From positions 1,178,001 through 1,242,000 of the forward strand of contig JAUFOQ010000010.1 in the NCBI GenBank assembly GCA_040285855.1: 64,000 nt of DNA. Direction: 5' to 3'. This stretch comes from Eukaryota sp. GEM-RC1. Taxonomy: Eukaryota. The notes below the pieces were generated by a model that was given only the letters and a program-made list of their open reading frames with translations, was not told where the DNA came from and did not search any database. The translations under genes were made by a program, and so were the position numbers. Shown here piece by piece: positions 12,896 through 60,274 of the stretch (its first letter is position 1; each line of letters starts with the position of its first letter).

Positions 12896-14260
12896 TCAAA
12901 CGAAGCAAATAGTCAACGAACCTTTAGACTGAGCTCTGGCGAGCTTAATGGAAGATGATAATGACATAAACAGACATGAAGAAGAAGAAAGAAAAATACT
13001 TTCTTTTCTACAAACATTGCTACAACTGTTACATACACAATGTGAAGTTTGAGATAATTTCTTGATTAACTCCTCCATCTTAAGAGGAAATTTTTTTTCA
13101 GGAGCAATAACGAGACAAACAGGAAATGGCCAATTGGATTCATTAGGGTAAGCAAAACCTTGTTCAATCAGAATGTCAAAATATCGGTTGGGTACACCCA
13201 GTTTCTCAAGGTGTTTCTTCCTAAGGGGTTTGCAGACTATGATTGACTCGTCTTTAAGGGGAATCCTCATTGGCTTACATAAAGTACCTTCGGGATGAGG
13301 GTAATCATTAAACACATCGGCAAAATTATGAACAGTATCAATGAGTTCCTGTGTTTTAGATTCAGGTAATTCAATGTGTGTACGTTTGTACTTAAGAATC
13401 TGTTTCAATTTCTAAATCTAGTATCTGCTTACAGTTTTTGGAAGCCATTAATTGAGACTGCAGAACTAATACGTTTAGGGTTTCCTTAACAAAGTTCGTG
13501 TCGAGGCAACGTATTATCTATATACAAAAGTTCGTTTGACCCAAAGTGATCAGTATGTCGCGTATTTTTGGCCCTAAGAAGATTTGAGTAGAAAGACTTC
13601 TTCTTTTAAGCAGAAACGACTTCTCTAAGATAACCGAAACTTCTTAAATTGACAACAGCTGATTGTTGAGAATTTTAGAACGTCAATCAGTGTGGACTGC
13701 TAAAAGAGCTCACTAAAAAAAGGGATCACTGATTCTTTCGGTTGAGACAGTTCCTGTATGCAGACAGTCGTGTTTCTGATATAATCTAATAGTTGCAGCT
13801 GATGAGGGTTGTTTCAAGACAGAAACATAGAGACCGAAGTTACACGATGCTTTAAGACATCATAGATTCAGATTCTTCCTGTCGCTTTGTTTTTAAAGTA
13901 GTGTTTTGCATTCATAGCTTTCGAACAACTGTATTTCTGACCTAAGAGCTTGTATTTATGCGTATTCCTGATTAACACATAAGATGTGTTTATCTGACAG
14001 AACGATTCTGTGTGGCTTAAAGCGACGGCAGGCCTTTCCACACATCCAATGCTGGAGTTTAAGGAAACTAGCTAAGAGAGGAGCAGCTCGAATTAGCGAA
14101 ACACAATCTGGATAACACTGTAACAAAGGAGACCCAGGAATCAGATCAGTTGTTTGTGGAAGGAAAGAAGAACCTCTGAGAACAAATAATGGTAATGATC
14201 AAAACAACTTCTGATCTAAGAAACAGTTCATGAAGGGATGTTCGGGTCCGTACAGCGGAA
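12896..14260 (-). mobile_element. Decayed Ty3/gypsy fragment (RT N-terminus, probable gag remnant); boundaries approximate
   Basis: IELPESK..DVFNDYPHPEGTLCKPMRIPL..FDILIEQGFA..PVCLV aligns with IELPKET..DVFGKPHPDGIKCKPMTIPF..FDDLIEDGFA..PIVLV of the intact element. Confidence 0.7.
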
Positions 14261-15156
14261 GAACAAGTCTCTTCATTATGTTTATTTGACCTGTTAAGAC
14301 TAAGTGATGTTTTTGAAGCTTTCCCTACTTTTAGTAATACAAATAAGTCATATTGAATGTGATTGTAATTGTTGGAAACAAATGTTGAAGACCTCTTTAG
14401 TTAGCTTAATATCATCTTTGTTTTCTCACACAATTTATAAGAATATGGACTTGAAAATTCTTGATATCGTAATTTCTTTAATAGCATTAGTTTTACATGG
14501 GTTTATTTTAGTCGAACAGAGTCAATGAAATTATTCAAAAATTATAATGTTTTGAAAAATATTGGTACTTTGTAGGTGTGTACATTCTTGTTTGAGTGAG
14601 AGAAGAAGGACGTTTTAATCAGCATTCACTTGACAACTCTTGGTCTTGTTAATTATAACAGCGTTGTTCTACTATTTTCGTCTAATTTTGAGACCAAACA
14701 AATGAAAATATATCACGAAACTTTGTGTTCAACAGTATTGTTCACAAATTATTTCAACAAATTTTACTTGCTGTTGAGTATTCTGGCTACATAAAATGGA
14801 GACACTGTCTGTATCTGAGTGAGACGAAGATCTAATGATTTTTAAAGTCATCATTGTATGCAAAAACACTATTGTCTGTAAATGGAAAACAACAAACCAG
14901 TTCAGCAGGTCTTTGTCTGAACATCACCTCCGTTTGCCATGTGTTCAACCATGAAAAATTAGTTCTTTTGTTTGAAAGCCAGAGTTTGAAGGTACTATTA
15001 CAGCATGTACTGTAAAAGTAGACATCCACACCAAACTTGTGGACCACTGAAACCCGTGTAATGTGAATGTGAATGTGAATGAAGCAGATTGACAAACACA
15101 ACACGGTGTGGTCTACAAGATTGATTCACCTCGGATTTCCCTTCACTCTACCTAAA

Positions 15157-16857
15157 ATGTCTAACCCCCAGTCTCCACTCAATAGTAGTCGTCCATCGGA
15201 TGATAGTGTTTCGGTTACTGACGTTGTTGAATGTAATAGAACATCTTCTAGTATCTCCTCTTCCCATCCTAGCGATAGTGCGTCATCCCCTTCGAGCTCC
15301 AATCTGCTGCACTTCCAACAGTCCCTACTTGTTCTCATTCACCTTCATTTTCTACGTCATATGTTAGCACCCCCTCTAGAATGGAATCAGTATGCTCCTC
15401 GTCGTTCTCTCAAAGATTTTATACTCTGGAAGAAAACCATACCTACATTCTTCAAGAAAGTTGGCTATGTCAGCCATCATTTCTTTGAATCCGCTCTACT
15501 CTCAACCAAGGTGTCCTTCGAATCAAAAACCTTTCATGCAACACCTGAAGATCTTCCTCAAATCTCTTCATTTGCTTCTTTCTTTGGAGCAGAGAAACAA
15601 TCAGTTTTCTTACACGTATACAGGAGTTTTAATGTTGACGAATTTCTTAGTTACTCTCATGTAATCTCAGGATTAAAATTGAAACTAAAGTACCACCGTG
15701 ACCTAGAGTTTCTTAACAACTCGGCCTTGTTATTTCCACGTCTTAAGCAACTTCGTGTTGCTGTCCGCGCTTCTATTTCTATGTCGCTTATAGAATTGTT
15801 GAAAGTTAATACTACGGTTACATTTGTTGTTCTGTATGGAAATTTAATTGAAGATGAAGGTGCTAGAGCTTTGGCAGATGCGTTAAAAGTTAATGTTACA
15901 GTTACAAGTATTAATCTTGGTGAAAACTCTATTTTTGATGAAGGTGCTAGAGCTTTGGCAGATGCGTTAAAAGTTAATGATACAGTTACAAGTATTAATC
16001 TAGGTGCCAACTTTATTGGCGATGAAGGTGCTAGAGCTTTGGCAGAGGTGTTAAAAGTTAATGATACATTTACAAGTATTAATCTAGGTGACAACTCTAT
16101 CACATTTGAAGGCGCTAGAGCTTTTGCAGATGCTTTAAAAGTTAATACTGTAGTTACAAATGTTGTTCTGTATGGAAACTCAATTGAAGATGAAGGTGCT
16201 AGAGCTTTGGCAGATGCGTTAAAAGTTAATGATACAGTTACAACTATTAATCTATTTGACAACTCTATTGGTGATGAAGGTGCTAAAGCTTTGGCAGATG
16301 CGTTAAAAGTTAATAGTACAGTTACAAGTATTGGTCTTGGTGTGAACTCTATTACATATGAGGGTGCTAGAGCTTTGGCAGATGCATTAAAGGTTAATAA
16401 TGTTGTTACTAATGTTGTTCTGTATGGAAACTCAATTGGACCTGAAGGTGCTAGAGCTTTGGCAGATGTGTTGAAAGTCAATACTGTAGTTACAAGTATT
16501 GATCTGGGTTCATGTCTTATTGGACCTGAAGGTGCTAGAGCTTTGGCAGATGTGTTGAAAGTCAATAATGTAGTTACAAGTATTGATCTGTGTTCAAACC
16601 ATATTGGACCTGAAGGCGCTAGAGCTTTGGCAGATGTGTTGAAAGTCAATACTATAATTACCAGTATTAATCTAGGTGACAACTCTATTGGTGATGAAGG
16701 TGCTGGAGCTTTGGCAGATTCGTTCAAAGTTAATGATACAGTTACAAGTATTAATCTTGGTGAGAACTCTATTACATATGAAGGTGCTGAAGCTTTGTCA
16801 GATGCGTTAAAAGTTAATAGCACAGTTAAAATAGCTGGAGTCCATCAACTCAATTGA
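15157..16857 (+). CDS. LRR family A protein (Ser-rich leader, 12 LRRs)
   Basis: ORF 15079-16857; start moved to ATG 15157 (MSNPQSP) by comparison with paralogues at 4941 and 35056. Confidence 0.9.
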   Translation: MSNPQSPLNSSRPSDDSVSVTDVVECNRTSSSISSSHPSDSASSPSSSNLLHFQQSLLVLIHLHFLRHMLAPPLEWNQYAPRRSLKDFILWKKTIPTFFKKVGYVSHHFFESALLSTKVSFESKTFHATPEDLPQISSFASFFGAEKQSVFLHVYRSFNVDEFLSYSHVISGLKLKLKYHRDLEFLNNSALLFPRLKQLRVAVRASISMSLIELLKVNTTVTFVVLYGNLIEDEGARALADALKVNVTVTSINLGENSIFDEGARALADALKVNDTVTSINLGANFIGDEGARALAEVLKVNDTFTSINLGDNSITFEGARAFADALKVNTVVTNVVLYGNSIEDEGARALADALKVNDTVTTINLFDNSIGDEGAKALADALKVNSTVTSIGLGVNSITYEGARALADALKVNNVVTNVVLYGNSIGPEGARALADVLKVNTVVTSIDLGSCLIGPEGARALADVLKVNNVVTSIDLCSNHIGPEGARALADVLKVNTIITSINLGDNSIGDEGAGALADSFKVNDTVTSINLGENSITYEGAEALSDALKVNSTVKIAGVHQLN

Positions 16858-22943: not shown

Positions 22944-25000
22944 TTAACCCATTTTATTTACCCAAATAATAGAATTAAAAAACAACTTGTGTCCATCAGT
23001 TGAACTAGGCCAATTAAATAAACCACAGTTACCGTCACTTGAACAACTAAAACACCCAAACTCTACAAGTCTACCTCCACCAACTTCTTTCTTTGCAATT
23101 AAAGGAATTCCATAGTTAACAGTAGCTAACAGAGTTGCATTAACAGACTTTTGAGTTTGAAAACCACAGTTAGTAGAGAAACTGTTTACATTAAGAAAAA
23201 TAGGATCATTTGGTAGAGTTTTTACCATGTCACGTTGGGTTTTTTGATTGGTAAGATAACCAAACGAATCCCCAACTCCATTAAAGCAAGAATTACTAAA
23301 TCCTCCTTTAATATAACTTGGACAACTATTAAACAAAACCAAACCCTTACCTTGGTTTAAAAACTGGTCAAGAAATTGACCCGGACAAAGACACCAGAGA
23401 CTTTCAACAACTAAAACATCATAGTTTTCAAGTTCTTCAAAGCTTCGTACTTTACTGGTGAATGAATTAATTGAAAGATTAACATGTCCCCAATTTTCAG
23501 CAAAACCTTTTTTAATTTTGTCAGTGAGATCGCTTACATAATCTTGATACCAAACACAAACTCCAACATTAATTGTTCTTAAAGTAATCTCCCTGCCCAA
23601 GAATTTTCGACCAATTACTTGAATTTCATCTCCAGCAAAATTTTCAAGGACAACTTTTTCCAACCAAATTGTCCTGTTTTGATTTGAGAAATTTTCTAAA
23701 TTAGTTCTCGATAATAAATTACCAGGAATAACTGGAATTTCGGGAACACTTTCAAAAGAGAAATTGTTGATTACTTTTGACAATAATTCTACATTGGAAT
23801 GTTCAACAAAAGTACCAACTAGAGCAAGAAATTCTTCTTCAGTTAGTGAATTAAACTCTAGTTTTGCAAACATTAAATTGGTTAATTCAGGGTTATGATT
23901 TTTAATCCACCTAAAGTGAGAAATTGAAATAGTTTGAGAGTTATTGATGAAATTATTCAATAATTTGAGTTTTAATTCTTGCGGAATTTCAAGTACCACG
24001 AGTTCTTGTAATTCTGAGAAATTGACAGAAAAATCATTGGAAATTTGAGCAATTTTTAATATTTTCTTGGATTTTGAAGACACATCAAACATATCAACAT
24101 CAATTAAATCTTTCTTCACCAATTTGGACATCAATTTCAAATGAAAAGACGTTGCACTTTCTTCAATGAATTCAAAGCTTTCAATAAATGATTGTTTAAA
24201 GCTTTTTAAAACCTCTAAAGCATTTTCAATAAACTCATCGCCTTTGTCTCTCAACTCTTTGTTAAAAGTTAGAGCACAACTAACGGTATTTCCAGTAGTA
24301 AGATCAACAATCTTTTGAGATGATTCTCTAACCAAGTTGTTGATCAAGTCATAAAGAATTGTCTGAGTATTGACGAGAACTTCAGCAACAACCTTTTCTA
24401 CTTCTTCTTTATTTCCAGAGACTTTCGAAGTTGCATTGGACAATGAGAGGTGGAGCTCTTTGACTTGGAGTTCAAAGTCTTCTTTGGCTTGTGAAAGAGG
24501 AATCAATTCCTCACAGTGTTTAGCGTGACCCATTGAAGGTCCACACGAGTCGCATATAGATACCAAACACTTAGTGCAGAAGTGTTCGAGGGGTTTAGAG
24601 AGGTGGCGAGGGCATTTGAAAGAAGAGATTGTGGGTTTTTGGTTGATATGAACAACTGAGTGGGTTCGCAAGGCTTTTGGTCGGTGAATAGCAGAAGAAC
24701 AGTCTTCACAGTAACTGGCATCACAGTCAGCACAGAAAAGAGTGGCAGGAGCTTCTTCACATTCAAAACAGATGGCCGCATCTTGCTTTGAGTTTTTAGC
24801 AATTTCAATAGCGTCACGTAAAGCGATGTTTACACGGAGAGGCGCGGAAGGTATTGGTTCTCGACATACGGGACAAGAAGCCGCTTCTTTTTGTTTTAAC
24901 CATTGCACAAGACATTTGTCACGGCAAAACTGTGGCCACACGGAAGCGTGGTCGGATTCTCCATTAGTTCTTCGCATACGTAACATTCAAGATGAGACAT
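22944..25000 (-). CDS. TRIM-like E3 ligase: RING, B-box, B-box, coiled coil, C-terminal alpha/beta domain; one apparent frameshift in the RING
   Basis: ATG 25000 gives MSHLECYVCEELMENPTTLPCGHSF; one extra base at the A4 run 24926-24929 joins it to CRDKCLVQW..CPVCR, completing a C3HC4 RING. Then CFECE..CADC..CEDC..H..H and CPRH..CTKC..CDSC..H..H. Confidence 0.88.
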
Positions 25001-27470: not shown

Positions 27471-30400
27471 ATGTCAACCAGACCCCAATCTTCACTTCCA
27501 GCATCACACCTTCTTGCTGATCAGGTACGCTTCGTAGCACCGAAGCTGTCCTCCCTCTCCACGAATGCCGTCGCCCGCTTCGTCCAGGAAGTCTCTCACT
27601 TCCTCCAGGCCTCCGAGCCTGACCAATCCCAAAGTATTCCTTTGACAGAACCAACTGTGTTCCCTTCCGTCTCCGCCTCCATCCCTTCAGCCGCTGAACG
27701 CTTAGCTGAAGTCGAACAGATGATCCATGCCGCCTTAAAAGAATCTCACCTTGAAGGTTTTGACCCTGAAACCTTTGCCGCCTACTGGTCCGCCGCCAAG
27801 AAAGTCACAATCGCCGCCAACGACTCCCCTTCTCCTAAACCCTCTTCAGGAACCTCCATGCCCAGGTTTCTCCAAGATGATGCGGATGCTCTACAACGCC
27901 ACTTAAAGACCTCTAACTTATCTCACTCCTCTTCCTTCCCTCATCAACTTGATGACTGTAATGGCCCTTCGTTCTTCGATGACCCTCCTGTCCCTGAAGA
28001 CTTCCATCGCTTTATCCTCCCAAACATAATCAGCCTAATTCGTATTATGTGTCCAACCGCTCTTTCTAGCCAGGAAAACCTGTGGACTTACCTCCTATCC
28101 ACCATAGCCGCCAAAGACGCCTCAGAAGCCAGAAGATTGCTGAACTCACTCTCAATGAAAACGCCAGGCCGAGAACCACTTACATTCTACATCCTCGACC
28201 TCCAGAAAGCTGCCCAGAGATGCAAGAACTTCCTGAACATCTCCAGGCCGAAACCGCTAATGGAAAGTTTCATTCAAGGCTTCAAGCCCTACGCTTTAAA
28301 AGCAAATTGATGGATGAGTTCAAGATGAACATCATCCAGGATATCGATTCACTAATATCCAGAACGATCGCGCTCAACGAAACTATAACTCATGAAGAAA
28401 CGAACCCCAGACTCCGTAATGCTCAAAGAAGAAGTGATTTTAACTCTAACCCCATCTTTAGAACCAGAACTCCATATCCAAATTCCAACCTCCGAAACAA
28501 AGAACCAGCCGGCGAAAAGAAAAGCTGCTCTTTCTGTAAGAAAGACGGCCACGTTATCGAAGATTGCTTCGATAAGTCGTGTAAGAAGTCGAAACATTAT
28601 GATCCATCAGCTCCGCAAACGAAGAAGCCGTACTCAAATCCAAGGCTTCCAAGACCAACATTTGGAAACGCTAAAAGATCAACTAGAAGCTCTAAAAACA
28701 ATTTTGTCGCTTCCAGAGAGCAATGCTCTGAAAGTCCTTACTCTACCACTATCTCAGATGACGAACCCATAGAGTTCGAGCTAGAACTCCCAAAATTTCT
28801 ATCAAACACCTTCCTTTTGACAAATCCAAGAACGTCAACGCCCAAAGCCTCTGCCGAAACAATGGATGATCCTCTCCCAGTGAGTGTTCCGCTGGAATTA
28901 AGCTCTTCCGTAAAGGAATTGAGCCCAATAACAGGATCGGGTTTCGACCCTTTTCTACCAGTGCGAGATACGCCACAATGGGATGGTGACTCCAAAGTTA
29001 ACGCAGTGGTCAAAGCCGAAGCCAAGTCGAATCAAGGACCTTCCAAGTTACTATCTCTCAAAGTCCTTATAAATAACTCTCCTTTCGAAGCACTGATCGA
29101 CAGCGCTTGTGAAACCTCTTGCTTCTCAGAGGACATCGCGAAAAAAGCCGGATGCTCAATTGCCGCCAGCAGATTCAAGTTCACACTAGCAAATGGTACC
29201 AACATCCAATCCCCTGGAACCGCTAATTGCATACTGAGCTTTGAATTTGATCGTATCCTCTCTCCTTTGGTACACCTGAAATGCCAGATCCCAATTATAC
29301 CAGGAGTAAACCAATTCCTAATTGGATGTGACTTGCTGTCAAGCCTCGGGCTACTAAAGAAAACTCCCTGATGATCAACTTGAACAAAGAACATTCAAAG
29401 ATCACAGGAGCCGAAGCCACCCTGGACCACCTAAGGGTCGACACACCTAGGAAAGGCCTCGTCGCTGCAACGTCCACAACTTTAGACGTATCAGAAAGTA
29501 GAATCGAGCTTCCCAAAGAAACCGAAGAGAAATTGCTGAAAATTCTAAACAAACACAAAGACGTGTTCGGAAAACCCCATCCTGATGGCATAAAATGTAA
29601 GCCAATGACTATCCCGTTTTACAACGAGGGCACAACCTGCAAGAAAGCCCCCAGAAACCTAAATCCTACTAAATTGAGGATCGCCAACGAGATCTTTGAT
29701 GACCTCATCGAAGACGGATTCGCCGAAGAAACCTCAACTGAGTCCAAATTTAGCTCTCCAATCGTCTTGGTAATCTATCCTGACGGTAAGAAACCCAGAT
29801 TAACAGGGAGACTACTCAGGAACTGGAGGCGTGAACGCTTCCACCAAGTCAATTGAAGCCCACCTACCAAAGATATCAGACGTATCTATCTTCCTCTCAA
29901 ATGCCAACTTCATTTGCACACTAGACCTTCCGAAAGCATTTTGGCAAGTCCCGCTAGACCGAGCTGATTACCAGAAAACTACACTAAGCATCCCAGGCCG
30001 TTCAATATTCTTCAAAAGAGCCGCCTTCGGACTAAAGAACGTCCCTGCGTTCTTCCAGAACTTGATGCAAGACATCTTCTCCATGCCTAATGTCTTTATT
30101 TACATGGACGATGTAATCATCGCTGCTTGCACAGAAGAAGAACTGCTTTCCACGTTAAATGCCATACTAACGAAAGCAGCAGAACATAGAGTCCGCTTCG
30201 CCCTCCGAAAATGTGCATTCCTGACCTCAGAAAGCGCCATAAAGATCCTTGGAGCAATTTTCCATAAAAAGAAAAGATCTATAGACCCAGACAGAGTCAA
30301 ATGCATCATCAAGCTGCCTATTCCCTCAACGATAGGCGAGCTGCGCTCCTTTAACGGCTCAATTAACTATATCCGAGACTGGATACCTCACCTGTCGAAC

Positions 30401-33331
30401 TGCCTTCAACCTTTAACGGCCCTAACTAAAAAAGACGAGTCAGATCGCCGATCAGTTAAATCCAAATGGACAAGCTCGCACACGAACTGCTTCCCTAACC
30501 ATCAAGAATCTAATTTGTAACGCCTGCAATCTAGCTCTCCCCGACGCAGACGCAAAAATTGTAATCTCAACAGACGCCTCTGATAAAGCTATTAGCGGAG
30601 TAGTTTGGAAGAAGCTTGACAAGACCCCTACGACCTCTCCGCTAGAAGAACAAAAATTAGAACCAATCAGTTTTTTCTCGAAGACCTTGACGGATAGCCA
30701 AATGAACTGGCCAATAATCCAGAAGGAACTCTTCGCGATAATTTGCACCCTGAACCAGCCCATCATGGCCAACTTCTTGATGACTCGGCAGCTAACGATT
30801 TTCTGCGACCACAAGAACATCGTCTACCTGATTAACCAGCCAGAACGAAATCGGATCGTAACCCGCTGGATTCCCTTTCTATCTAACTTCTCCTTCCAAA
30901 TCATCCACGTCGAAGGTCCAAACAACGTATTCGCCGACCTCCTTTCACGTCTCACGCCCGCTAACCCCAGTTTAGAATCAGAATTACCTGAAACCTCAAC
31001 ATGCTTTAGCTTATTTTCAGTAGAACTCTACGACACTGAATACTACTTTGACGAAACCCCAACAAAAACCGAATGCCCCAAGTGTGGAGAACGCATGCCC
31101 TACTTAACCATGCCCGACCACATACCCTGTGAAGGCCCATACTTCGCATGCAGAAACTGCCTCAACAAACTAGAACCCCATGAAGTCTATAACGATGATG
31201 AACGCAGAGCCCTGCTTCACTTGTACCCGAAAGAAGACACGCCTATCAAAGACTACTGCGGCATCTTCCAGCTAGACAAAGCAGGTCCTCGGAAATACAT
31301 TGAACGCAGAGACGACCATATCAAGGAATTATGCTTCCGCTTCGTAAAGCACAAAGGTCTCATCAGAAGCCTAGAAAAGAAGAACTCTTCACTAAGGAAA
31401 CTAGTAGAACCTCCTGCCAAAATCAAAATAATTGAACCAGAATCGAAAATTCCATGTGCCCACTGCAATCACGGAACCACCGACTTGGAACTATGTGCCA
31501 GCCACCACCAAGTAACAACATATCAAGAACGACTGGTCTGCCACAGCTGCAAGAAATATACAACCGATCAGTTGCTGACAGAAGCCAAAGAAAAACTAAA
31601 GAAAAGAAAAACTAAAAACTCCCACGAGAAGCTCCTATCTTACGATGGCACAGGCCCCCTCGTATGCTATTCTTCCACAGATGAATCCCCTTATGATTCA
31701 AAAGAATCAGAAAACTCCGACTCTGATACCCCTTTACCCAAAAATGCTTCGCACTTCGCTGGTTTGGTCAGCCTCCTAAGAAACCAATCAGAATCATTCC
31801 AGAATGGCTCAAAGAAGAAATAGAGAAAGCCCGCAAAGAAAAAGAAGTCATCGACATAAGCTCTGATGAATATGAAGAAGACCCCTTACCTTCAATCACC
31901 TACTCAGTAAGAACAGTCGAAACTCAAGACACAACCTGGCTTGACACCCTGCGCACCCAACAGCAACTAGAACTAAAAGACTCCAGTGACAGATGCTCCT
32001 GGGACGCCGAAGCTCAAATGTTTGTCACCCCTGATAACAAAATCCTCGTTCCTGAATCTCTAAGAAAAGAGGTAATGTGGAACTTTCACGGATATGCTCA
32101 CTGTGGTCACCCTGCCTTGTGGCAATGTCTCAAAGACATAAAAAACAGCTGCTACTCTTGGCCAACATTAGAAACTGATTTAAAAAATCACATCGACTGT
32201 TGCCACTCATGTCAGAAGACAGCCCCAGCCCCCAAGACGAAAACCCAATCAACCGGATCCCTGTTTGCAATGAAACCGTTCGGCAATATCCACGCCGACA
32301 CTATAGGACCCTGGCCCACAGACAACCTTGGAAACAGGTACGTGCTAGTATTCGTAGACGCCTTTACGAGATACACCATCTTATGTCCCTCAGACAAAAT
32401 CTCCGCTACAAACTCAGCATACTGTCTTATCAACTCGGTATGCGCCAACTTCGGCATACCCGACATGATCCACTCAGATAACGGACCCGAGTTTTGTAAC
32501 GCCACCTTTAAAGCATTATGTGCCTTCCTGAACATAACTAACTCCTTCTCGCTCCCTCACCACCATCAAAGTAATGGCCTGGTTGAGCGAAGAAATCGTG
32601 AAATCAACCAAACACTGGAGAGATTTCTCCTAGACCTGAACGACTTCCAAAACTGGTCGACCCATCTTCCTATGGTGCAGTTGATGATCAACAACCAGCG
32701 CCACTCTGTAACCCGATGCACCCCATGGGAACTGATGTTTGGATCGCCAATCGATCCTAGAAAACCCGCTTCTGACCTGCTAGACCAACTAACCGCCAAG
32801 CCACTTAGAGAAACAGGCAACGTGTTTGTCGATGCCCTCTCTGCAAGAACCACCTACTTGAAAGGAAAGTGGGAAGAAGCAGCCAGAAACCAGCAAAGCC
32901 ATCTGGACAAACTTAGACCTAACTCAAAACCGGTCAAGAACCCCTTTGTCATTGGTGACCTCGTGCTTCGAAAGAACGACCAACCTCAGCGCCTGCATGG
33001 CTCATGGTTAGGCCCTGTTCAAGTGCTGGAAAGCTCTCCCGACTCCACGAAAGTTAAAATTCTAAACTTCGTCACAGGCAACGAACTCACAACCTCCAGC
33101 TTGCTCCTTCGCCTATTCATGGCCCACTCATCCAACAAGGAGTACCTGACCGCCATCGCCGCTATGGACCAACAAGAGTCTATACTTGTGAAGGTGCCTG
33201 ACATCGATCACAGATCTAACAGAGTCCATGTAGAATGGATAGACGGCTCTACATCTATGGAACCTCTCGATGAAATCCGCAAGACCACCGCATGGTCCAA
33301 GGCCAAGCACCTCCACGATGATCCCCTTTGA
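27471..33331 (+). CDS. Gag-Pol polyprotein, probably one ORF broken by about five single-base indels
   Basis: Knuckle CSFCKKDGHVIEDC, protease LIDSAC, RT LDLPKAFWQ and YMDD, RH TDASD..KELFA..CDHKN..ADLLSR, IN HHCC and HADT..SDNGPEF..NGLVER, WLGPV, chromo-like VHVEWIDGSTSMEPL. Confidence 0.9.
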
Positions 33332-33691: not shown

Positions 33692-35056
33692 CTAAATGTC
33701 TAGTTTAACAACGCCAAAGAATTTTGATGTCTCTGCTAGAAGTCTAGCACCTTCATCTCCAATGGGATTATAATTCAGATTAACAGTTGTAATTGTGGAA
33801 TTGACCTTCAACACATCTGCTAAAATTCTAGCACCTTCATCTCCAATAGAGTTGTTCTCCAGCACAAGACTTTCCAATGTACTATTAACTTTTAACGCTT
33901 CTGCCAAAGCTCGAACACCTTCATCTCCAATAGATGTTCTCCTAATGTCGAGACTTTCCAATGTACTATTAACTTTTAACGCTTCTGCCAAAGCTCGAAC
34001 ACCTTCATCTCCAATGGAGTTTCTTCTCAGATCGATACTCGTAACTGAAGTATTAACTTTTAACGCATCTGCCAAAGCTCTAGCACCATCATCTCCAATA
34101 GAGTTGTAGCTCAGATTAACAATTGTAACTACATTATTATCTATTAACACCTGTGCCAAAGCTCTAGTACCATCATCCCCAATAGAGTTGTAACTCAGAC
34201 AAATATTTTTAACTGCCGTATTAACTTTCAACGCCTCTTCCAAAGCTCTAGCACCTTCAAGTCCAATAGAGTTGCTCGCCAGGTTAACAATTGTAACTGT
34301 AGTATTGACTTTTAATGCATCTGCTAAAGTTCGAGCACCTTCATCCCCAATATGGTTGGAGTCCAGATCAATACTGGTAATTGTAACATTAAATTTCAAT
34401 AATTCGATAAATGCCATACAAAGACAACGCTGCACAAACACATGAAGCTGTTTAAGACGTGGAAAAAACAAGGAAGACTTGTTCAGAAACTCCAAGTCAT
34501 TGTCATTCTTTAATTCCAATTCCAATCCTGAAATTACATTAGAATAATTGACAAATTTTTCAACATCAAAGATCCCATGTACATGCAAAAAAACAGACCG
34601 TAACTCTGCTCCGAAGAAAGAAGAAAATGAACAGAGTTGAGGAAGGCCCTTTGGAACGACATGAAACGTGTTTGTTTGGAAAAACACTTTCGTTGCTAGT
34701 AAAGAGGATTCAAAGAAGTGATGGCTTACATAGCCAAGTTTTTTGAAGAATTTGGAAAGATCTCTCTTTAAGTTAAGGAGAGCACGACAAGGATCGTCAC
34801 GATCATAATGAGAAGAATGTTCTAACAAATGATTGAGGAAATGGAGGTGGATCAAAACTAGAAGAGACTGTTGTAAGCGTAAGATACTGGGAGGAGAATG
34901 AGAGGACGGTGGAGCGGTCGATGTATCAGACCTAAGATTCGAAGAGGAGATACTAGAAGAGGATCCGTCACAATCAACACTGTCAAGAATTGAAACGGTT
35001 TGATCTAATGAAAGACTACGATTCAAGAGACGTTCAGATGAGTTATGAAATGACAT
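33692..35056 (-). CDS. LRR family A protein (Ser-rich leader, 8 LRRs)
   Basis: 454-aa ORF with family core and 28-aa LRRs. Confidence 0.9.
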   Translation of the reverse strand: MSFHNSSERLLNRSLSLDQTVSILDSVDCDGSSSSISSSNLRSDTSTAPPSSHSPPSILRLQQSLLVLIHLHFLNHLLEHSSHYDRDDPCRALLNLKRDLSKFFKKLGYVSHHFFESSLLATKVFFQTNTFHVVPKGLPQLCSFSSFFGAELRSVFLHVHGIFDVEKFVNYSNVISGLELELKNDNDLEFLNKSSLFFPRLKQLHVFVQRCLCMAFIELLKFNVTITSIDLDSNHIGDEGARTLADALKVNTTVTIVNLASNSIGLEGARALEEALKVNTAVKNICLSYNSIGDDGTRALAQVLIDNNVVTIVNLSYNSIGDDGARALADALKVNTSVTSIDLRRNSIGDEGVRALAEALKVNSTLESLDIRRTSIGDEGVRALAEALKVNSTLESLVLENNSIGDEGARILADVLKVNSTITTVNLNYNPIGDEGARLLAETSKFFGVVKLDI

Positions 35057-35691: not shown

Positions 35692-36690
35692 TCAAAACCC
35701 TGCTCTAACATCTCTAACATACATCAACTTCATTGTCAATGTTTTCATCACCTGAAGAATCAGTCCAATCAGTGTCACTCCACTCACTAGTGGATCATCT
35801 AGTGCCATCATCATTCCACAAGCTATCGTTCCACTGGTGGTATAGTAATTCAGGAACTTCATTATTAGGAACTTCCTCTGCTTTTCTTGGACGCTTACCT
35901 TTTGACCTTCTCTGAATCGTCTTTTCTGAGGTCTACCTCTTGGTACAGAGACTTTTGGCGGTTCCAAACAATTGACGGTTCTGTATCCGTAAGACTCAAC
36001 TCTTGTTTCAAATTGACTGAAACTATTCCCATTAGATAGGTTCTAAGGTAGTTATCGCTGAAATAGAAAGCTTCACCTCCATCAACAATGTTCTTCTTCA
36101 TAGCTAATATGGCTGCAACAGCATGTTCACAAGGATAACCAGTTTCTTGCCATCTTTTACACGTACACACTCTTTGTGAAACATTGACCATGAAGGTCTC
36201 CAAAGTGGAGTCTTCTTTTACAACCACTTCTACCGTTACATCACGAGTCACTTTGTTAGTACTCAGTGATCTTGCCTTTAAGGCAGAAGCTTTAACCAAA
36301 GACCAGAGCCTTGAAACTACTGCTGTTTCAAAGCTTTCGGCATCTGCAAGTCGGGTTTCATACCAACTAGTTAATTTATCACATATAGAATTGATCATGC
36401 GCACTATTGGCAATCCTCTTGTTCCAAGAAGCCATGCATTTAGACTTTCAATTAAGTTTGAGGTCAACCGTAACGCATACCCCGTACACCTTTGAGGACT
36501 TTCCACGAATTTCCTCCATCACACTGTCAAACTCTCTTACTAAATCTCTTTTAAATTGCTCTTGCTGCGTTCCAAATTAGTTTACTATATTTTGCACCCA
36601 TATTTTTGCATAAGTGACGTACACAGTATGCATGGAAGCTTGCTGGATAGACTTGCAAAAGTCACTTTTCTCTATCTGACACAAAAGTCA
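35692..36690 (-). pseudogene. MULE transposase remnant
   Basis: TSNLIESLNAWL, SWIM CTCKRWQETGYPCEHAVAA, PRGRPQKRR; frameshifted; TIRs not found. Confidence 0.8.
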
Positions 36691-42338: not shown

Positions 42339-43674
42339 CTAATATTTTACTTCAACAACTCTATTGACTTTCAGCGCCTCTGCCAAAGCTCTAGCACCTT
42401 CATCTCCAATAGAGTTAGAACTCAGTTCGATAGTTGTAATTGTTGTGTTAACTTTTAACGCCTCTGCCAAAGCTCTAGCACCTTCATCTCCAATAGCGTT
42501 AGACCTCAGATAAACACATGTAACTGTAGTATTAACTTTCAACGCCTCTGCCAAAGCTCTAGCACCATCATTTCTAATACAGTTGTAACTCATATTAACA
42601 AGAGTAACTGTATCATTAACTTTCAACGCCTCTGCCAAAGCTCTAGCACCTTCATCTCCAATATAGTTAGCCTGTAGATCAATAACAGTAACTGTAGCAT
42701 TAACTTTCAACGCGTCTGTCAATGCTCTGACATCTTCATCTCCAATAGAGTTATAACTGAGAGTAACAATTGTAATTGTAGCGTTGGTTTTTAACAATTC
42801 AATGAAAGCAATAAAAATAGAAGAATGAACACGCACATCAAGTTGCTTAAGACGTGGAAAGAACAAGGAAGACTTGTTGAGAAACTCCAAGTCATTGTGA
42901 TTCTCTAATTCCAATTCTAATCCAGAAATTACATTATCATAACTAAGAAATTCTTCAACTTTAAAGCTATCGTACACGTGTAAGAAAACAGATTGAATCT
43001 CTGCCCCAAAAAAAAGAAGCAAATGAAGAGAGTTGAGGAAGGTCATCAGGAATGACATGAAACGTGTTTGTTTGAAAAAGCACTTTGGTTGCTAGTAAAG
43101 CAGATTCGAAGAAATAATGACTTACATAACTAACTTTCTTAAAGACTGGTAATAAATCTTTTTTCAACTTGTAGAGATCGCCGCATCTATATTCATGACA
43201 TTCAAGAATGGACTTGAGCATACTACTCAGCATATGAAAATGAATGAGAATCAGCAAGGACTGTTGAAAGTGTATGCTGTGAGTAGATTGGAACGAGGTC
43301 GTCAAAGGGAGAAGTTCAAGTGGTTTGGGTTCAGTATTAGGTTTAGAAGAGAAGGTACTAGTATTCAATGGTTTAACAGAAGACTGAGAAGCAGAGGCTA
43401 CATGGGTACCTGGCATATTACTAGGAGAACGAACTTCTTTAACGGGAAGTGAGGAGAAAGCTTGAATAATGTCAGCTGCTGTTGCACTGTATGCAACGGT
43501 GGCGATTTCGGCAGTGAAGGGAGCTTCGAAGGGAAGCTCATATTCTTCGTGGGATGGACGTGGATTAGAAACGTGTGGTTCTCCACCAGTTCTAGAACTG
43601 AAGGAACGAAGAGGAGTATCGCACCCTTCAAGGGAAGATGTAACATCAGTACTGTTTCCAGTGTTAGGTTCCAT
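42339..43674 (-). CDS. LRR family A protein with internally deleted RRM, 5 LRRs; one apparent +1 frameshift
   Basis: ORFs 42967-43707 and 42339-43058 join at the A8 run 43008-43015 (FASFFGAE in paralogues); ATG 43674 (MEPNT) matches MEHNT / MKHNT. Confidence 0.85.
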
Positions 43675-49218: not shown

Positions 49219-51228
49219 ATGGAGCATAATACTGGAGAAAGAACTGTTGTTATATCTCCCTCCAGAGGCCGCGATCCTCCTCATCATTCCTTCAGTTCTA
49301 AAGCTGGCGAAGAACCCCATGTTTCTACCCCACGTCCATCCCACGAAGAATATGAACTTCCCTCTGAGGCCCCCTTCATTGCCGAAATCGCCACCGTTGC
49401 AAACAGTACAACAGAAGCTGACATCAAGCAAGCTTTCTCCTCTCTTCACGTTAAAGAAGTTCGATCTTCTAGTAATATGCTAGACACGTTTTTTGTCGAA
49501 TTTCTCGATGTTCAAGGACTCAAGCAAAGTTTAGATAAGTACTGGATGTTTAAGATCCATGGCCGCCCTATCCGTACCTATGTAGCCTCTGCTCCTCAGT
49601 CTTCTGTTGAACCATTGAATACTAGTACATTTTCTTTTAAACCTAACGCTGAACCTAAACCACTTATCCCTTTGACTTCCTCATTCCAATCTCCTTCCAG
49701 TTGCTTACACTTTCAGCAATCTTTGCTGATTCTCATTCATTTTCATATGCTGAGTAAAATGCTCAAGTCTATTCTTGAATGTGATGAATATAGATGCGGC
49801 GATCTCCACAAGTTGAAGAAAGATTTATTACCAGTCTTTAAGAAAGTTGCCTATTTAAGCCATCATTTCTTGGAATCTGCTCTTTTAGCAACAAAGGTGT
49901 TTTTTAAAACAAACATTTTTCATACCATCCCTGAAGATCTTCCTCAACTCTGTTCATTTGCTTCTTTCTTTGAAGCAAATATACAGTCTGTTTTCTTACA
50001 TGTCAGCGGGAGCTTTGATGTTGAAGAATTTCTTAGTTATTCTCCTATAATTTCAGGATTGGAACTAGTATTAACGAATCATAATGACTTGGAGTTTCTG
50101 AGCAATTCTTCTAGTTACTTTCCACTTCTCAACCAGCTGCATGTGTCTGTTGATCGTTCTATTTCTGTATCATTTATAGAATTATTGACAGAAAATACTT
50201 CAATTACAAGTATTAATCTCAAGGACAACTCTATTGGGCATGAAGGTGTCAGAGCTTTGGCAGAGGCATTAAAAGTTAACACTACAGTTACAAGTATTGA
50301 TCTGAGCAAGAACTTTATTGGAGATGAAGGTGCTAGAATTTTAGCAGATGTGTTGAAAATTAACACTACAATTTCAAATATTAATCTGGGGGACAACTCC
50401 ATTGGTGTTGAAGGTGCTAGAGCTTTAGCAGAGGTTTTGAAAGTAAATACTGAAGTTTCAAGTATTAATCTTTGCAAGAATTCTGTTGGCGCTGGAGGTG
50501 CTAGCGCTTTGGCAGAGGCGTTAAAAGTTAATGTTACTGTCAAAAGTATTAATTTGTGGAAGAACTCTATTGGAGCTGAAGGTTTTGAAGCTTTGTCAGA
50601 GGCGTTAAAATTTAACACTTCAGTTAAAGATATTAATTTGTTTAACAACTCCATTGGAGCTGCAGCTGTTAGAGTTTTTGCAGATGCTTTAAAAGTTAAC
50701 ACTACAATTACAAATATTAATCTGGGGGACAACTCTATCGGAGCTGTAGGTGCTACAGCTTTGGCAGAGGCGTTAAAAGTTAACACTACAATTACCAGTA
50801 TCCACCTCAGTATGAACTCTGTTGGAAATGAAGGTGCTACAGCTTTGGCAGAGGCGTTAAAAGTTAACACTACAATTACCAGTATTGGTTTGATCAAAAA
50901 CTCTATTGGAGATGAAGGTGCCAGATCTTTGGCAGAGTCGTTTAAAGTTAACACTACAATTGCAACTATTAATATGGACTTTAACTCTACTTCTGTTGAA
51001 GGTGCGAGAGCTTTTGCAGAGGCGTTGAAAGTTAACACTACAATTACGAATATTGGCATGGTGAATAATTCTATTAGAGCTGAAGGTGCTAAAGCTTTGG
51101 CAGATGCTTTAAAACTTAATCGTACTGTTTCAAGTATCTATTTGAGGTACAACTCTATTGGATCTGAAGGTGCTAAAGCTTTGGAAGAAGCGTTAAAAGT
51201 CAATAGCATTGTTGAAATAGACTATTAG
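49219..51228 (+). CDS. LRR family A protein with intact eIF4B/eIF4H-like RRM, 12 LRRs
   Basis: Uninterrupted ORF: RRM about 49357-49590, family core, then 12 x 28-aa LRR. Confidence 0.93.
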   Translation: MEHNTGERTVVISPSRGRDPPHHSFSSKAGEEPHVSTPRPSHEEYELPSEAPFIAEIATVANSTTEADIKQAFSSLHVKEVRSSSNMLDTFFVEFLDVQGLKQSLDKYWMFKIHGRPIRTYVASAPQSSVEPLNTSTFSFKPNAEPKPLIPLTSSFQSPSSCLHFQQSLLILIHFHMLSKMLKSILECDEYRCGDLHKLKKDLLPVFKKVAYLSHHFLESALLATKVFFKTNIFHTIPEDLPQLCSFASFFEANIQSVFLHVSGSFDVEEFLSYSPIISGLELVLTNHNDLEFLSNSSSYFPLLNQLHVSVDRSISVSFIELLTENTSITSINLKDNSIGHEGVRALAEALKVNTTVTSIDLSKNFIGDEGARILADVLKINTTISNINLGDNSIGVEGARALAEVLKVNTEVSSINLCKNSVGAGGASALAEALKVNVTVKSINLWKNSIGAEGFEALSEALKFNTSVKDINLFNNSIGAAAVRVFADALKVNTTITNINLGDNSIGAVGATALAEALKVNTTITSIHLSMNSVGNEGATALAEALKVNTTITSIGLIKNSIGDEGARSLAESFKVNTTIATINMDFNSTSVEGARAFAEALKVNTTITNIGMVNNSIRAEGAKALADALKLNRTVSSIYLRYNSIGSEGAKALEEALKVNSIVEIDY

Positions 51229-57112: not shown

Positions 57113-57178
57113 TACTCTCCAACCATCAATAAATAAATGTCATTGAATTTTTTTCTCAGTCTCTGCTTTCAATCATAT

Positions 57179-60100
57179 ATGGACAAACGTTCTTGTTTCT
57201 TCTGTAAAGCCGTCGATGCTTGTCTCATTGAAGTCTGTTGCGATCGCTATGTTTGCTCCCTCAAATGCCGAGATCAATGGAGATCAAGTTGTCTCTGCAG
57301 TTCATGTACAATATCTACTTCGACATGTCCATCTGGTTCCGATGTTCTTCCTGACTCCGTTGCCACTTCTTCTCCCCCCTCTCCTTGTTCGATCTCTCCT
57401 TCTTCACAGTTCATCCACTTGCAGCAATCTTTAGTATCTCTCATCAGTTCTCACATGCTTACAAATCTTTGGAACTCTTTTCCTATCTATAAGCAAAACA
57501 ACCGCTCTCGCCACCGTCGTTTAACCAACAAACTGCCTACATTCATCCAACAAGTGGGATATGTTAGTCACCGCTTCTTTGTAGCTGTTTTCATTGGAGT
57601 TAAAGTGTTCTTTGAGTCAAATACACTTTCTGTTGATGTCTACGATCTCCCTTTTCTTCTTCCCATAGCCTGTTACTTCCAAGCAGACGTACCATCTGTT
57701 TCCTTGATTGTGGATCCATCCTGTAAAGTTGAAGAACTTCTTGATCACACTTCAAGAATTACTAGACTAAGGATAAATGATGACGTCACCAATTTGACCC
57801 ACTTACTTGACAGCTCTTCTCCTCTCTTCTTACCTGGACTAAGATGTATTGATTTTACCACAGACTCAGAGTCTGAGTTAACTACCTTCTGTGAAGCTCT
57901 ATTGTTGAGCACGACTATTGTTGAATTAAGTATAACTCAACTACAAGGTTTCTCATCAGACATTGTTTTCACTCTTGTAGAAGTATTTAGTTCAGTTCAC
58001 ACATTTAGAAAGGTTAAACTCGCATCGTTTCAAAAACTTTATGGTGAAGATGAACTCAAGTCTCTGTTTACTGCTTTAATGACAAATACCAAACTTAAAT
58101 CAATTGATTTGAATCTTCCTTATCCAGGTAATTTAACTCTTATGGCTCCTCTTCTGTCAATGCCTGAGCTTCAAACTATCGTGGTACCCCCTTACTATTA
58201 TAATTATTATGATGGACAACCCTTTCCACCAGTTTTTCATGGCCTTAGGAACAATTCTTCTCTACATCAAATAACGTTTGTCCAGAGTGTTATCAATACT
58301 GAAGAAATCTCCCATGTTTTAAATTCTAATTCATCTTTGAAAAATTGGACATTTTACAATGTAGTTTCACGTATTTTCATAATTTTCTGGAAGAAAATTC
58401 TTCATTATTAGAGTTATCACTTTCGCAGCGTCAGGGGTCAAAAAAAATCAAAACATCTTTACAATGGACTAATGGAAATGATTCAAACTAACACTAGTTT
58501 GATGGTGTTAAATCTGGATGTTTCTTGTTTAAGATATCTACAAATTCAAAAAAATCCTCAAAGCACTTGAAGCTAATTCTACTCTTCGGAAAGTTAGTTT
58601 TCCTGGGATACGATTAAAACTGACTTCATTAATTGCAGTTTTTGAAATTTTATCTCCTCTAAAGCTGCGGTCAACTGTAGACATTTCTCCTTATTATATC
58701 GACACTAAAAAAGGTGTGTTTTGTTATTCTTCTCAAGAACTTGTCCGCTTGACTTCCGAAGAAGTCTCAACTTTACAGTCATTTCTAGAGTCTTTTACTA
58801 TCAAACATCTTACTCTTAATAATTGTCGTTTTACCCACGATGTAATAATTGCTTTGTGTAATCTAATTAGGGCCAATAATTCATTGATTTCCATGGACTT
58901 AAGTTACTCTAAACTATCTAATGACAATATCATCAAATTTGTTCATGCACTTGAATTCAATTCTAACTTAAAAGAGTTCTTCTCCATAATATTTGTAATG
59001 AATTTAATCCACTTCTAATTATTTTTAGATGTGCTGCCATTCATCAATCACCAATATTCTTTGAAGTTTCTCCTGCTTCTGTACACCTTTCTATTGGCAC
59101 TATTTGTTATCAAAACAGATTATCTGATGATGATTTAGTCTTACTTTTAGAAGCTTTAAAATCAAATGTTCCTATTAAAAGTGTAGTTTGTCCAGGATTA
59201 AGACGACCAAGTCTAAAAACCTGTTTAACATTACTGGAGATTCATTCCTTAAACAAATCTGTAATCAGTTTTGATTGCTTTCCTCGTTGTATTGACTTGG
59301 ATAATGGAATAGTTGGTTTTTCTCCATCTAAGTCTATTCCGGTAACTGTAGAAGAAATCTCAGCTCTACAGAATCTTTTGGATGTTTTCAATATCAAAGA
59401 ACTTTCCCTCAACAATTGGCGTTTTTCCAGTGATGCAATCACTAAGTTGAGTGATTTAATTAGGCTATCTACTTCATTGACTTCTGTTGACTTCAGTTGT
59501 TGCAATTTATCTCCTGAACAAGTTTTTACATTAATCAGTGCCTTCGAATCCAATTCTTGTTTAAAAACGGTAGACATCTCCAACTGCGGAACTAACTTAA
59601 ATAATCTTTTGGAAATCTTTCAACTAATTTCAACCGAAGAACTGTCACCTAAATTAAAGTGTTTTCCCCATGTTATTGATGTTTCTCTTGGTTATATTCG
59701 TTATGAACATCACGTCACCAGTGATGACTTGGTATCACTTTTAAATGCCTTAAAGTCAAATGTTCCGATTAATCGTGTTGAATGTCTTGGTTTAATTAGT
59801 TCAAAATTTAGTGATCTTCTTGTTCTATTAGAGATTCTTTCCATCAACACGTCAGTTATCGACCTTGACTTCTCTCCTCATCTTTTAGATATCGAAAATG
59901 GAGTGTTTTGTTTTTCTCCCAAAAAAACCGTTACATTGACTTCCGAAGAAATCTATTCTTTGAGTTCTTTTTTACAGAGATTCCGTATGAAAGAGCTTTC
60001 ATTGATCAAATGTCATTTTACCAATACTACTATCACAAATTTATGTGATTTAATTGTAAACAATGATTCATTGATATCTTTTGACTTTAGTAAGATTCGA

Positions 60101-60274
60101 ATATCTGTGCATAATATTTCTTATTTACTTGAAACTCTTAGTAGTAAGACTTCCTTACGTCATCTTAATCTTAGTTATCCCATCCTGGAAGGTAATAGTC
60201 AATCAACTCACGACACAATCGTCAAAGAAGGTCGCTTGGAAAACATGTTTAAAAAAAGTTGCTTCGGTTTTTAA
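57179..60274 (+). CDS. LRR subfamily B protein: Cys-rich N-terminal finger, family core, three ~198-aa super-repeats; several frameshifts (gene or pseudogene)
   Basis: MDKRSCFFC..C..CC...CSLKC....CLCSSC; IHLQQSLV..VGYVSHRFF core; TxEE(I/V)S motif recurs at 58758, 59351 and 59945. Confidence 0.75.

Follow-up and report, generated by a model that had tools for sequence, protein, structure and literature searches.

The 64-kb window analysed here (contig JAUFOQ010000010.1 of Eukaryota sp. GEM-RC1, positions 1,178,001 to 1,242,000 of the forward strand; coordinates below count from the first letter of this stretch) is eukaryotic DNA with a G+C content of about 35%. It holds a cluster of eight genes that encode a shared conserved core followed by RNI-type leucine-rich repeats (LRRs). 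Among these genes lie a broken Ty3/gypsy-like retroelement, what remains of a SWIM transposase, and a few genes unrelated to the cluster. The subject of this report is the gene at 49219-51228 on the + strand, which, like two others of the eight, encodes an RNA recognition motif (RRM) of the eIF4H/eIF4B class ahead of the core.

An intact gene joining an RRM, a helical core and LRRs

The gene runs from the ATG at 49219 through 669 codons to the stop at 51226-51228, and its product is a 100% match to the database protein P0002. RRM, core and LRR part share this single frame, with no stop across its 669 codons, so the fusion proposed in an earlier reading made from the letters alone (the sequence-only reading) stands. 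The RRM peptides quoted in that reading all lie in frame, at 49357-49590 (residues 47-124).

From N to C terminus, the protein begins with a Ser/Pro-rich leader (residues 1-44, 49219-49350), which is poorly conserved and predicted to be disordered, with a predicted local distance difference test (pLDDT) score below 50 in the AlphaFold2 (AF2) model. The RRM follows (residues 45-125, 49351-49593) and includes an N-terminal 'ELPxEAPFxA' extension. A Ser/Pro/Thr-rich linker (residues 126-165, 49594-49713; pLDDT below 50 at residues 136-166) leads to the lineage-specific helical core (residues 166-232, 49714-49914), which bears the motif 'QQSLLxLIxxHLL..LCKS' and is predicted to form three long helices (residues 159-186, 190-211 and 215-231, that is 28, 22 and 17 residues, at pLDDT 55-69). 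The remainder of the protein is an LRR solenoid (residues 233-669, 49915-51225) of degenerate β/α units followed by regular 28-residue RNI-type repeats, matched by Pfam LRR_6 with an E-value of 2.8e-34; β/α alternation is modelled from residue 233 onwards at pLDDT 84-97. The AF2 model covers residues 1-344 and was built on an alignment of 26 family rows; a single-sequence model of the same residues had a pLDDT of 42.7 and was rejected as unusable.

Two long open frames run antisense over LRR arrays of the cluster, at 50115-51059 on the - strand (314 residues) and at 15657-16823 on the - strand (388 residues). Both shadow the repetitive coding strand and are no evidence of a gene.

The N-terminal domain is an RRM of the eIF4H/eIF4B class

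When a 97-residue piece was searched against the PDB with phmmer, the eIF4H RRM (2dng, E 7.5e-4) and the eIF4B RRM (2j76, E 0.082) ranked first and second of six matches at E<=10. A profile of nine paralogue RRMs sharpened this picture, with eIF4H at 1.9e-6 and eIF4B at 1.8e-5, 2.5e-4 and 1.2e-3 among 16 sequences at E<=10; nucleolin, at 6.1e-4, sits among the eIF4B matches. All nine paralogue RRMs match Pfam RRM_1 (PF00076) at E<=1, the best of them at 1.5e-5.

The modelled structure is in agreement. Residues 53-117 adopt a β-α-β-β-α-β fold at pLDDT 86-90, with strands at 53-57, 78-83, 91-95 and 111-113 and helices at 66-72 and 98-107. RRM structures fill the Foldseek list obtained with the AF2 model against the PDB, and 2dng and 1wi8 take the first two of at least 500 rows; their E-values (1.6e-3 and 3.9e-3, none reaching E<=0.001) are weak, a consequence of querying with a multi-domain model of 344 residues. 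Among 48,161 chains compared by VIA-align, RRM rows had Z scores of 5.9-7.3, the best being again 2dng (Z 7.3, root-mean-square deviation 3.1 Å over 77 aligned residues, 27% identity). An eIF4H-like cluster also came top in the ESM Atlas structure search, at weak template modelling (TM) scores (0.28/0.37).

Thus sequence search, nine-paralogue profile, Foldseek and VIA-align agree that the domain is an RRM of the eIF4H/eIF4B class and not of an unrelated RRM class, as the sequence-only reading had claimed; the N-terminal extension, together with best matches to eIF4H and eIF4B, places it in the eIF4B/4H subtype. The public annotation overlooks the domain: PF00076 appears in none of the precomputed Pfam lists, and all members of the family are named 'hypothetical protein'.

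Family size and conservation of the RRM

A core-seeded search of 5.8 billion proteins returned 46 core-bearing proteins, all from GEM-RC1 or the window, 10 of which carry the RRM. Pooling all searches gave 58 core-bearing models, 17 with the RRM or part of it; the sample favours RRM bearers, since the RRM itself was the seed of two of the searches. RRM and core are combined in at least 17 gene models, which, as far as the searched protein collections go, are confined to Skoliomonas sp. GEM-RC1. In nine database proteins a complete RRM is collinear with core and LRR array.

Among eight intact fused proteins (28 pairs) the mean pairwise identity is 0.77 in the RRM, as compared to 0.61 in the linker, 0.59 in the first LRR-like units, 0.57 in the core and 0.45 in the leader. 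The RRM is thus the best-conserved segment of the fused proteins. Within the window, the ratio of nonsynonymous to synonymous substitution rates (dN/dS) is 0.33-0.45 for the RRM against 0.55-0.71 for the leader, as computed on short segments of three sequences with few sites. Moreover, the α2-β4 block 'GLKQCLDKYWMF.I.GRPIRTYVA' is nearly invariant in both the fused and the free-standing GEM-RC1 proteins described below. On these sequence comparisons the RRM appears to be under constraint, and not a decaying passenger.

RRM-bearing paralogues in the window

Two further copies, named after their first positions, 5552 (+ strand) and 43674 (- strand), also have the RRM-containing N-terminal segment ahead of the core, as the sequence-only reading had noted; tblastn with three free-standing relatives of the RRM matched only these two loci and 49219 in the window. 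That reading counted four core genes lacking the RRM, and there are in fact five (3547-4941, 9152-10426, 15079-16857, 33692-35056 and 57137-58411).

The copy at 5552-7175 (+ strand) has a complete RRM, matched by RRM_1 at E 2.7e-4 (21.2 bits), and its frame is broken 3' of the RRM by a one-nucleotide insertion at 6013, which the public model P0012 spans by means of a predicted intron. The RRM of the copy at 42339-43674 (- strand) is partial: a 90-nt in-frame deletion (junction 43410/43409) has removed 30 codons from β3 to β4. A second defect, an extra T in the run of eight T at 43008-43015, breaks its frame, and the public model P0011 likewise spans the frameshift with a predicted intron. The 49219 gene is hence the sole intact one of the three RRM-bearing copies of the window in this assembly. 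Frameshifts in homopolymers such as this T8 run are a typical error of long-read, nanopore sequencing. Some of the frame breaks may be assembly errors, because the GEM-RC genome was, according to its description, assembled from Nanopore reads and error-corrected with Illumina reads (PMC11316075).

Of the RRM module, one core-LRR protein of the family found in the databases, P0020 (GEMRC1_000192), keeps just the start, 'ELPSEAAFTDKIV' (within residues 1-30), with the core following directly. Such a remnant suggests that some paralogues lost their RRM by deletion.

Free-standing relatives of the fused RRM

The N-terminal 144 residues were compared by phmmer with 1.84 billion representatives (E<=1e-3). 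The 22 matches comprise 14 GEM-RC1 proteins, three proteins of eIF4B/4H type and five low-complexity or repeat proteins; the last (P0033 and P0035-P0038), a cohesin-domain protein, a mucin-like protein and tandem-repeat metagenome proteins, were discarded. The eIF4B/4H-type matches are P0034, which has two RRMs (2.3e-9), P0039 (5.6e-4) and P0040 (9.7e-4). The cluster of P0040 contains a member named 'translation initiation factor 4B', and all three bear the signature 'LPTxPP(Y/F)(T/V)A(F/Y)(V/I)GNL'.

Three of the GEM-RC1 matches are free-standing, with neither core nor LRRs: P0031 (GEMRC1_010014, 250 residues), P0025 (GEMRC1_007935, 348 residues, two RRMs) and P0029 (GEMRC1_007552, 128 residues). 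Their RRMs are 49-60% identical to the fused ones, and they share with the fused proteins the non-canonical RNP residues as well as the α2-β4 block. P0031 matches eIF4H (2dng) across the whole RRM with an E-value of 3.6e-9 and has a full-length β2-β3 loop; being itself a match to eIF4H and 49% identical to the fused RRM, it connects the fused RRMs to eIF4H/4B. Over the RRM, P0029 and P0031 are 36-38% identical to P0040, and BLASTP aligns nothing elsewhere. A search with P0031 for proteins of similar length returned just P0031 and P0025 among 182 candidates, and is uninformative on orthologues in sister species.

Soon after the RRM, P0025, P0029 and P0031 carry a short 'WRG...(V/E)PS' or 'LRGVSEPL' motif. 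By eye this loosely recalls the 'WRR.GPLP' of P0039 and P0040; BLASTP does not align the two.

A maximum-likelihood tree was computed from 22 RRM segments, namely 14 fused or fragmentary rows, four free-standing rows and four outside rows, the last being those returned by the searches. All GEM-RC1 RRMs form one clade (100/100), in which the four free-standing rows make up a subclade (95/96). The fused rows are poorly separated, and a sister position therefore cannot be told from a nested one. The sequence-only reading had asked for the host's own eIF4B/H gene and for fused RRMs nesting within it: free-standing eIF4H-like RRM proteins do exist and share a clade with the fused ones, while nesting and sisterhood look the same in this tree.

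Non-canonical RNP motifs

The RNP consensus has aromatic residues at position 2 of RNP2 and at positions 3 and 5 of RNP1. In a profile alignment, 'AYVGNL' in RNP2 of eIF4H corresponds to 'AEIATV' in the 49219 copy and to 'A(E/K)IVNV' in the paralogues, and 'KGFCYVEF' in RNP1 of eIF4H to 'LDTFFVEF' in the 49219 copy and to 'PGTFFVEF' in most paralogues. Of the three stacking aromatics, only the Phe at RNP1 position 5 is kept; RNP2 position 2 has Glu or Lys and RNP1 position 3 has Thr.

The Glu that the sequence-only reading placed at the aromatic position of RNP2 is E56 (49384-49386), and other paralogues have Lys there. The same reading took RNP1 to be shortened, which is not the case: the octamer has its full length (L88-F95, 49480-49503) with non-canonical residues at positions 1-3, and what is shorter than in eIF4H, by five residues, is the β2-β3 loop that precedes it.

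The RNP2 aromatic is absent from all 13 GEM-RC1 RRM rows, including the free-standing ones, which read 'TARIVNA' or 'TAKIINA' at this place, whereas each of the four outside eIF4B/4H-type rows keeps it ('A(Y/F)(V/I)GNL', with 'KGFGYVEF' in RNP1). The earlier suggestion of weakened RNP motifs thus holds for the loss itself and not as a feature of the fusion. Since the loss is common to fused and free proteins, the degeneration is older than the fusion or, at the least, independent of it. Net charge and isoelectric point (pI) of the RRM were not used, as they do not discriminate RNA binders here (pI 4.4-8.1 for fused, 7.8-9.5 for free and 4.7-5.5 for outside eIF4B-type RRMs).

Other features of the window and its annotation

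Database proteins that match the frames of the window exactly or almost exactly are labelled 'hypothetical protein GEMRC1_... [Eukaryota sp. GEM-RC1]', a name that the taxonomy files under unclassified eukaryotes. According to the genome paper, Skoliomonas sp. GEM-RC is an anaerobic, free-living metamonad of soda lake origin, and the terms 'LRR', 'leucine-rich', 'RRM' and 'gene family' are absent from its text (PMC11316075).

The Ty3/gypsy-like retroelement lies at 27471-33331 (+ strand) and is broken into several overlapping frames, with Pfam matches to a reverse transcriptase at 29831-30520 and to an integrase core and H2C2 at 32018-33331. Its G+C content is 45%, against about 35% in the surroundings. 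A fragment at 12896-13408 (- strand) is related to it, a likeness judged by eye only. A SWIM zinc-finger frame at 35895-36506 (- strand), probably a remnant of a MULE-type transposase, lies upstream of the LRR gene at 33692-35056 (- strand). The public model P0045 (GEMRC1_009687) merges these two through a predicted intron; considered as a candidate for a further N-terminal module on the core, this SWIM-LRR 'fusion' was rejected and is probably an annotation chimera.

The divergent core-bearing gene at 57137-58411 (+ strand) begins with a Cys-rich segment ('CFFCKAVDACLIEVCCDRYVCSLKC...') for which no Pfam family was found, and the public model P0049 fuses it to the next LRR-like frame at 59297-60274 (+ strand). 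P0017 has another Cys-rich N terminus; both segments may represent additional modules placed N-terminal to the core.

Among the unrelated genes, the one at 22944-24986 (- strand) encodes a 680-residue protein with a RING-like Cys motif, then two B-box zinc fingers (Pfam E 3.1e-12) and a long region to which no Pfam family was assigned. The frame at 1-1197 (- strand), cut by the start of the window, encodes two CCDC81-type eukaryotic HU domains (Pfam E 9.9e-12 and 4.4e-9).

Discussion

We tentatively read the RRM of the 49219-51228 gene as a conserved docking head that brings the LRR scaffold to a partner of the free eIF4H-like proteins, a reading to which we give somewhat less than an even chance. 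The RRM would have been captured once from a resident eIF4H-like gene, over a span from about 10 residues before β1 to just past β4, and the fusion would have expanded in tandem after this capture. Fused and free proteins alike lack two of the three stacking aromatics and conserve the α2-β4 face, from which we predict that the domain binds in a non-canonical way, as a pseudo-RRM with a protein ligand or as an atypical RNA-binding domain. The α2-β4 block would provide a contact surface common to both forms, through which the RRM would touch the same partner, RNA or protein, in either context. The LRR part would then supply a second, variable binding surface, the RRM docking the LRR scaffold onto the partner.

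Several points weigh against this proposal. That the partner is shared is conjectural: no GEM-RC1 RRM has a known ligand, and the likeness of P0031 to eIF4H/eIF4B ends with its RRM, which is also the only part that backs P0031 as a putative eIF4H/4B homologue. The tree is rooted on four eIF4B/4H-type rows alone, and the branching order of fused and free RRMs is not separated. The 49219 gene is a predicted one, an open frame in the genome sequence; its RRM scores 13.6 bits against RRM_1 (E 0.063), under the cut-off of 20.7 bits, and has Asp in place of the RNP1 Gly. Two of the three RRM-bearing copies of the window are disrupted, several database models of the family are short fragments (104-340 residues) and part of the family may be decaying, while the dN/dS values that speak for constraint come from a thin sample. 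Finally, the F-box/LRR neighbours of the core considered next would, if real, alter the mechanism.

These neighbours bear on a different reading, in which the protein is a substrate receptor of the Skp1-cullin-F-box (SCF) type, its core a degenerate Skp1-binding F-box and its RRM steering ubiquitin ligation to an RNP or an RNA-bound target. In the ESM Atlas, the language-model neighbours of residues 1-335 are animal RRM_1 + F-box + LRR clusters (score 0.85), and those of residues 150-300 are F-box-like + LRR_6 clusters sharing about 100-107 of 256 features (0.87-0.90); the tool itself grades such scores as leads. The LRRs are of the RNI/FBXL kind, and the core motif loosely resembles the F-box pattern 'LPxELLxxIFxxL...VCKRW'. 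However, Pfam gave no F-box or F-box-like match (PF00646, PF12937) at E<=1 in the eight window proteins nor at E<=10 in six core segments, where only chance-level rows appeared, and a profile of six window cores had no match in the PDB at E<=10. The predicted core helices also exceed the length of F-box helices. The VIA-align matches of residues 158-232 to cullin and channel helices, at Z 6-7, are unspecific, with no Skp2 or FBXL row among those listed; these matches and those of residues 231-344 to enolase-superfamily barrels (Z 6-7.7 overall) were set aside as generic long-helix and β/α similarity. The ligase idea thus has a lead and fails the profile test, and the label 'ligase' that the sequence-only reading attached to these proteins finds no F-box detectable by hidden Markov models (HMMs) behind it. 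We regard an SCF receptor as unlikely.

An integrated bait, the interpretation offered by the sequence-only reading, is rather less likely still. Here the captured RRM would mimic a translation factor attacked by viruses or bacterial effectors, and the attack would be sensed via the LRR part. The herpesvirus host-shutoff protein binds eIF4H and eIF4B. The fused RRM does resemble free host proteins, since P0031, P0025 and P0029 share its RRM type at the 49-60% identity given above, and the non-canonical RNP residues are retained, as they should be in a mimic. The family is also expanded and clustered, with variable LRR numbers and broken copies, a pattern that is found in immune receptors too. 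In Fabaceae, the RRM is among the rare domains fused to nucleotide-binding LRR proteins (NLRs), as stated in one report (PMC11734081). On the other side, Pfam detected no NACHT, NB-ARC, TIR, coiled-coil (CC), CARD or other signalling domain at E<=1 in the eight window proteins, only LRR families and chance-level rows. They are therefore not NLRs, contrary to the likeness drawn earlier, and have no known route by which a signal could be transmitted. No pathogen or effector is known for GEM-RC1, a working eIF4H/4B role of P0031 is putative, and the evidence does not separate a bait from a plain targeting domain. More specifically, an NLR-less protist may have built LRR-only effector traps by capturing its own eIF4H-like RRM and multiplying it as bait by which translation initiation is protected from attack by viruses or bacterial effectors; we hold this improbable, and if true it would represent an independent invention of the integrated decoy outside plants.

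It is also improbable that the RRM is a functionless passenger carried along in a young tandem expansion, many copies of which are pseudogenes. The disrupted window copies and the database fragments would fit such a decaying family, as would P0020 with its mere 'ELPSEAAFTDKIV' remnant and the retroelement and transposase remnants interspersed in the cluster. Yet the RRM tops the conservation of eight intact paralogues (0.77 against 0.45-0.61), its dN/dS lies below 1 and below that of the leader, nine database proteins have complete RRM, core and LRR array, and the T8-run frameshift falls at a typical site of long-read error. That RRM and LRR parts are independent products of two genes joined by annotation is very improbable: although the public annotation merges unrelated neighbours here (P0045, P0049), the 49219 copy runs through 669 codons with no stop and no need of splicing, and the same collinear order recurs in nine database proteins.

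Whatever its function, the gene presents a new domain combination. RRM-LRR fusions are rare, and to our knowledge an eIF4H/eIF4B-type RRM on an RNI-type LRR protein has not been described, though no search was aimed at that architecture. It also offers a traceable domain capture, in a family apparently confined to one recently described free-living metamonad with a plausible donor family in the same genome. If the RRM serves as a bait or as a targeting head, protist LRR expansions would be linked to translation control or innate defence; if it is neither, the fusion would amount to plain shuffling of domains within one lineage.

Related architectures and domains

Among architectures with a solved structure, that of NXF1/TAP (3rw7) comes closest, with an RRM and then LRRs in one polypeptide. 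In NXF1/TAP, NTF2-like and UBA domains come after the RRM-LRR part and the LRR domain has four repeats. The GEM-RC1 proteins differ in having long RNI-type arrays instead of this four-repeat cap and, by Pfam, no NTF2-like or UBA domain. In the Foldseek list 3rw7 stands at rank 43 (probability 0.20, TM 0.18/0.24), a weak match with no meaningful similarity of structure or sequence.

Plant NLRs with integrated domains likewise carry a domain resembling a host protein on an LRR protein, in expanded, clustered and partly broken families. The GEM-RC1 proteins have none of their NB-ARC, NACHT, TIR, CC or CARD domains by Pfam, and no paired helper or effector is known. The animal RRM + F-box + LRR and fungal F-box-like + LRR_6 clusters of the ESM Atlas agree with the fused proteins in domain order (RRM, short helical module, RNI-type LRRs); the likeness stays at lead level (scores 0.85-0.90, about 100-130 shared features), and the GEM-RC1 core differs in its want of an HMM-detectable F-box.

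The free-standing GEM-RC1 RRM proteins differ from the fused ones in being devoid of core and LRRs, in the full-length loop of P0031 and in the two RRMs of P0025. With the RRMs of eIF4H and eIF4B (2dng, 1wi8, 2j76), the fused domain shares the fold, the 'ELPxxPP(Y/F)TA' extension before β1 and the pattern 'YVEF.D...LK.AL ... R.IRV.VA'. It departs from them by Glu or Lys for the RNP2 aromatic and by non-canonical residues at RNP1 positions 1 and 3, and from eIF4H by the five-residue shortening of the β2-β3 loop and a 'YWMF' segment before β4. Outside the RRM, eIF4B and eIF4H have Gly/Arg/Asp-rich and C-terminal parts that act with eIF4A; the fused proteins have no part of eIF4B/4H beyond the RRM, and carry in that place the Ser/Pro linker, the helical core and the LRR array.

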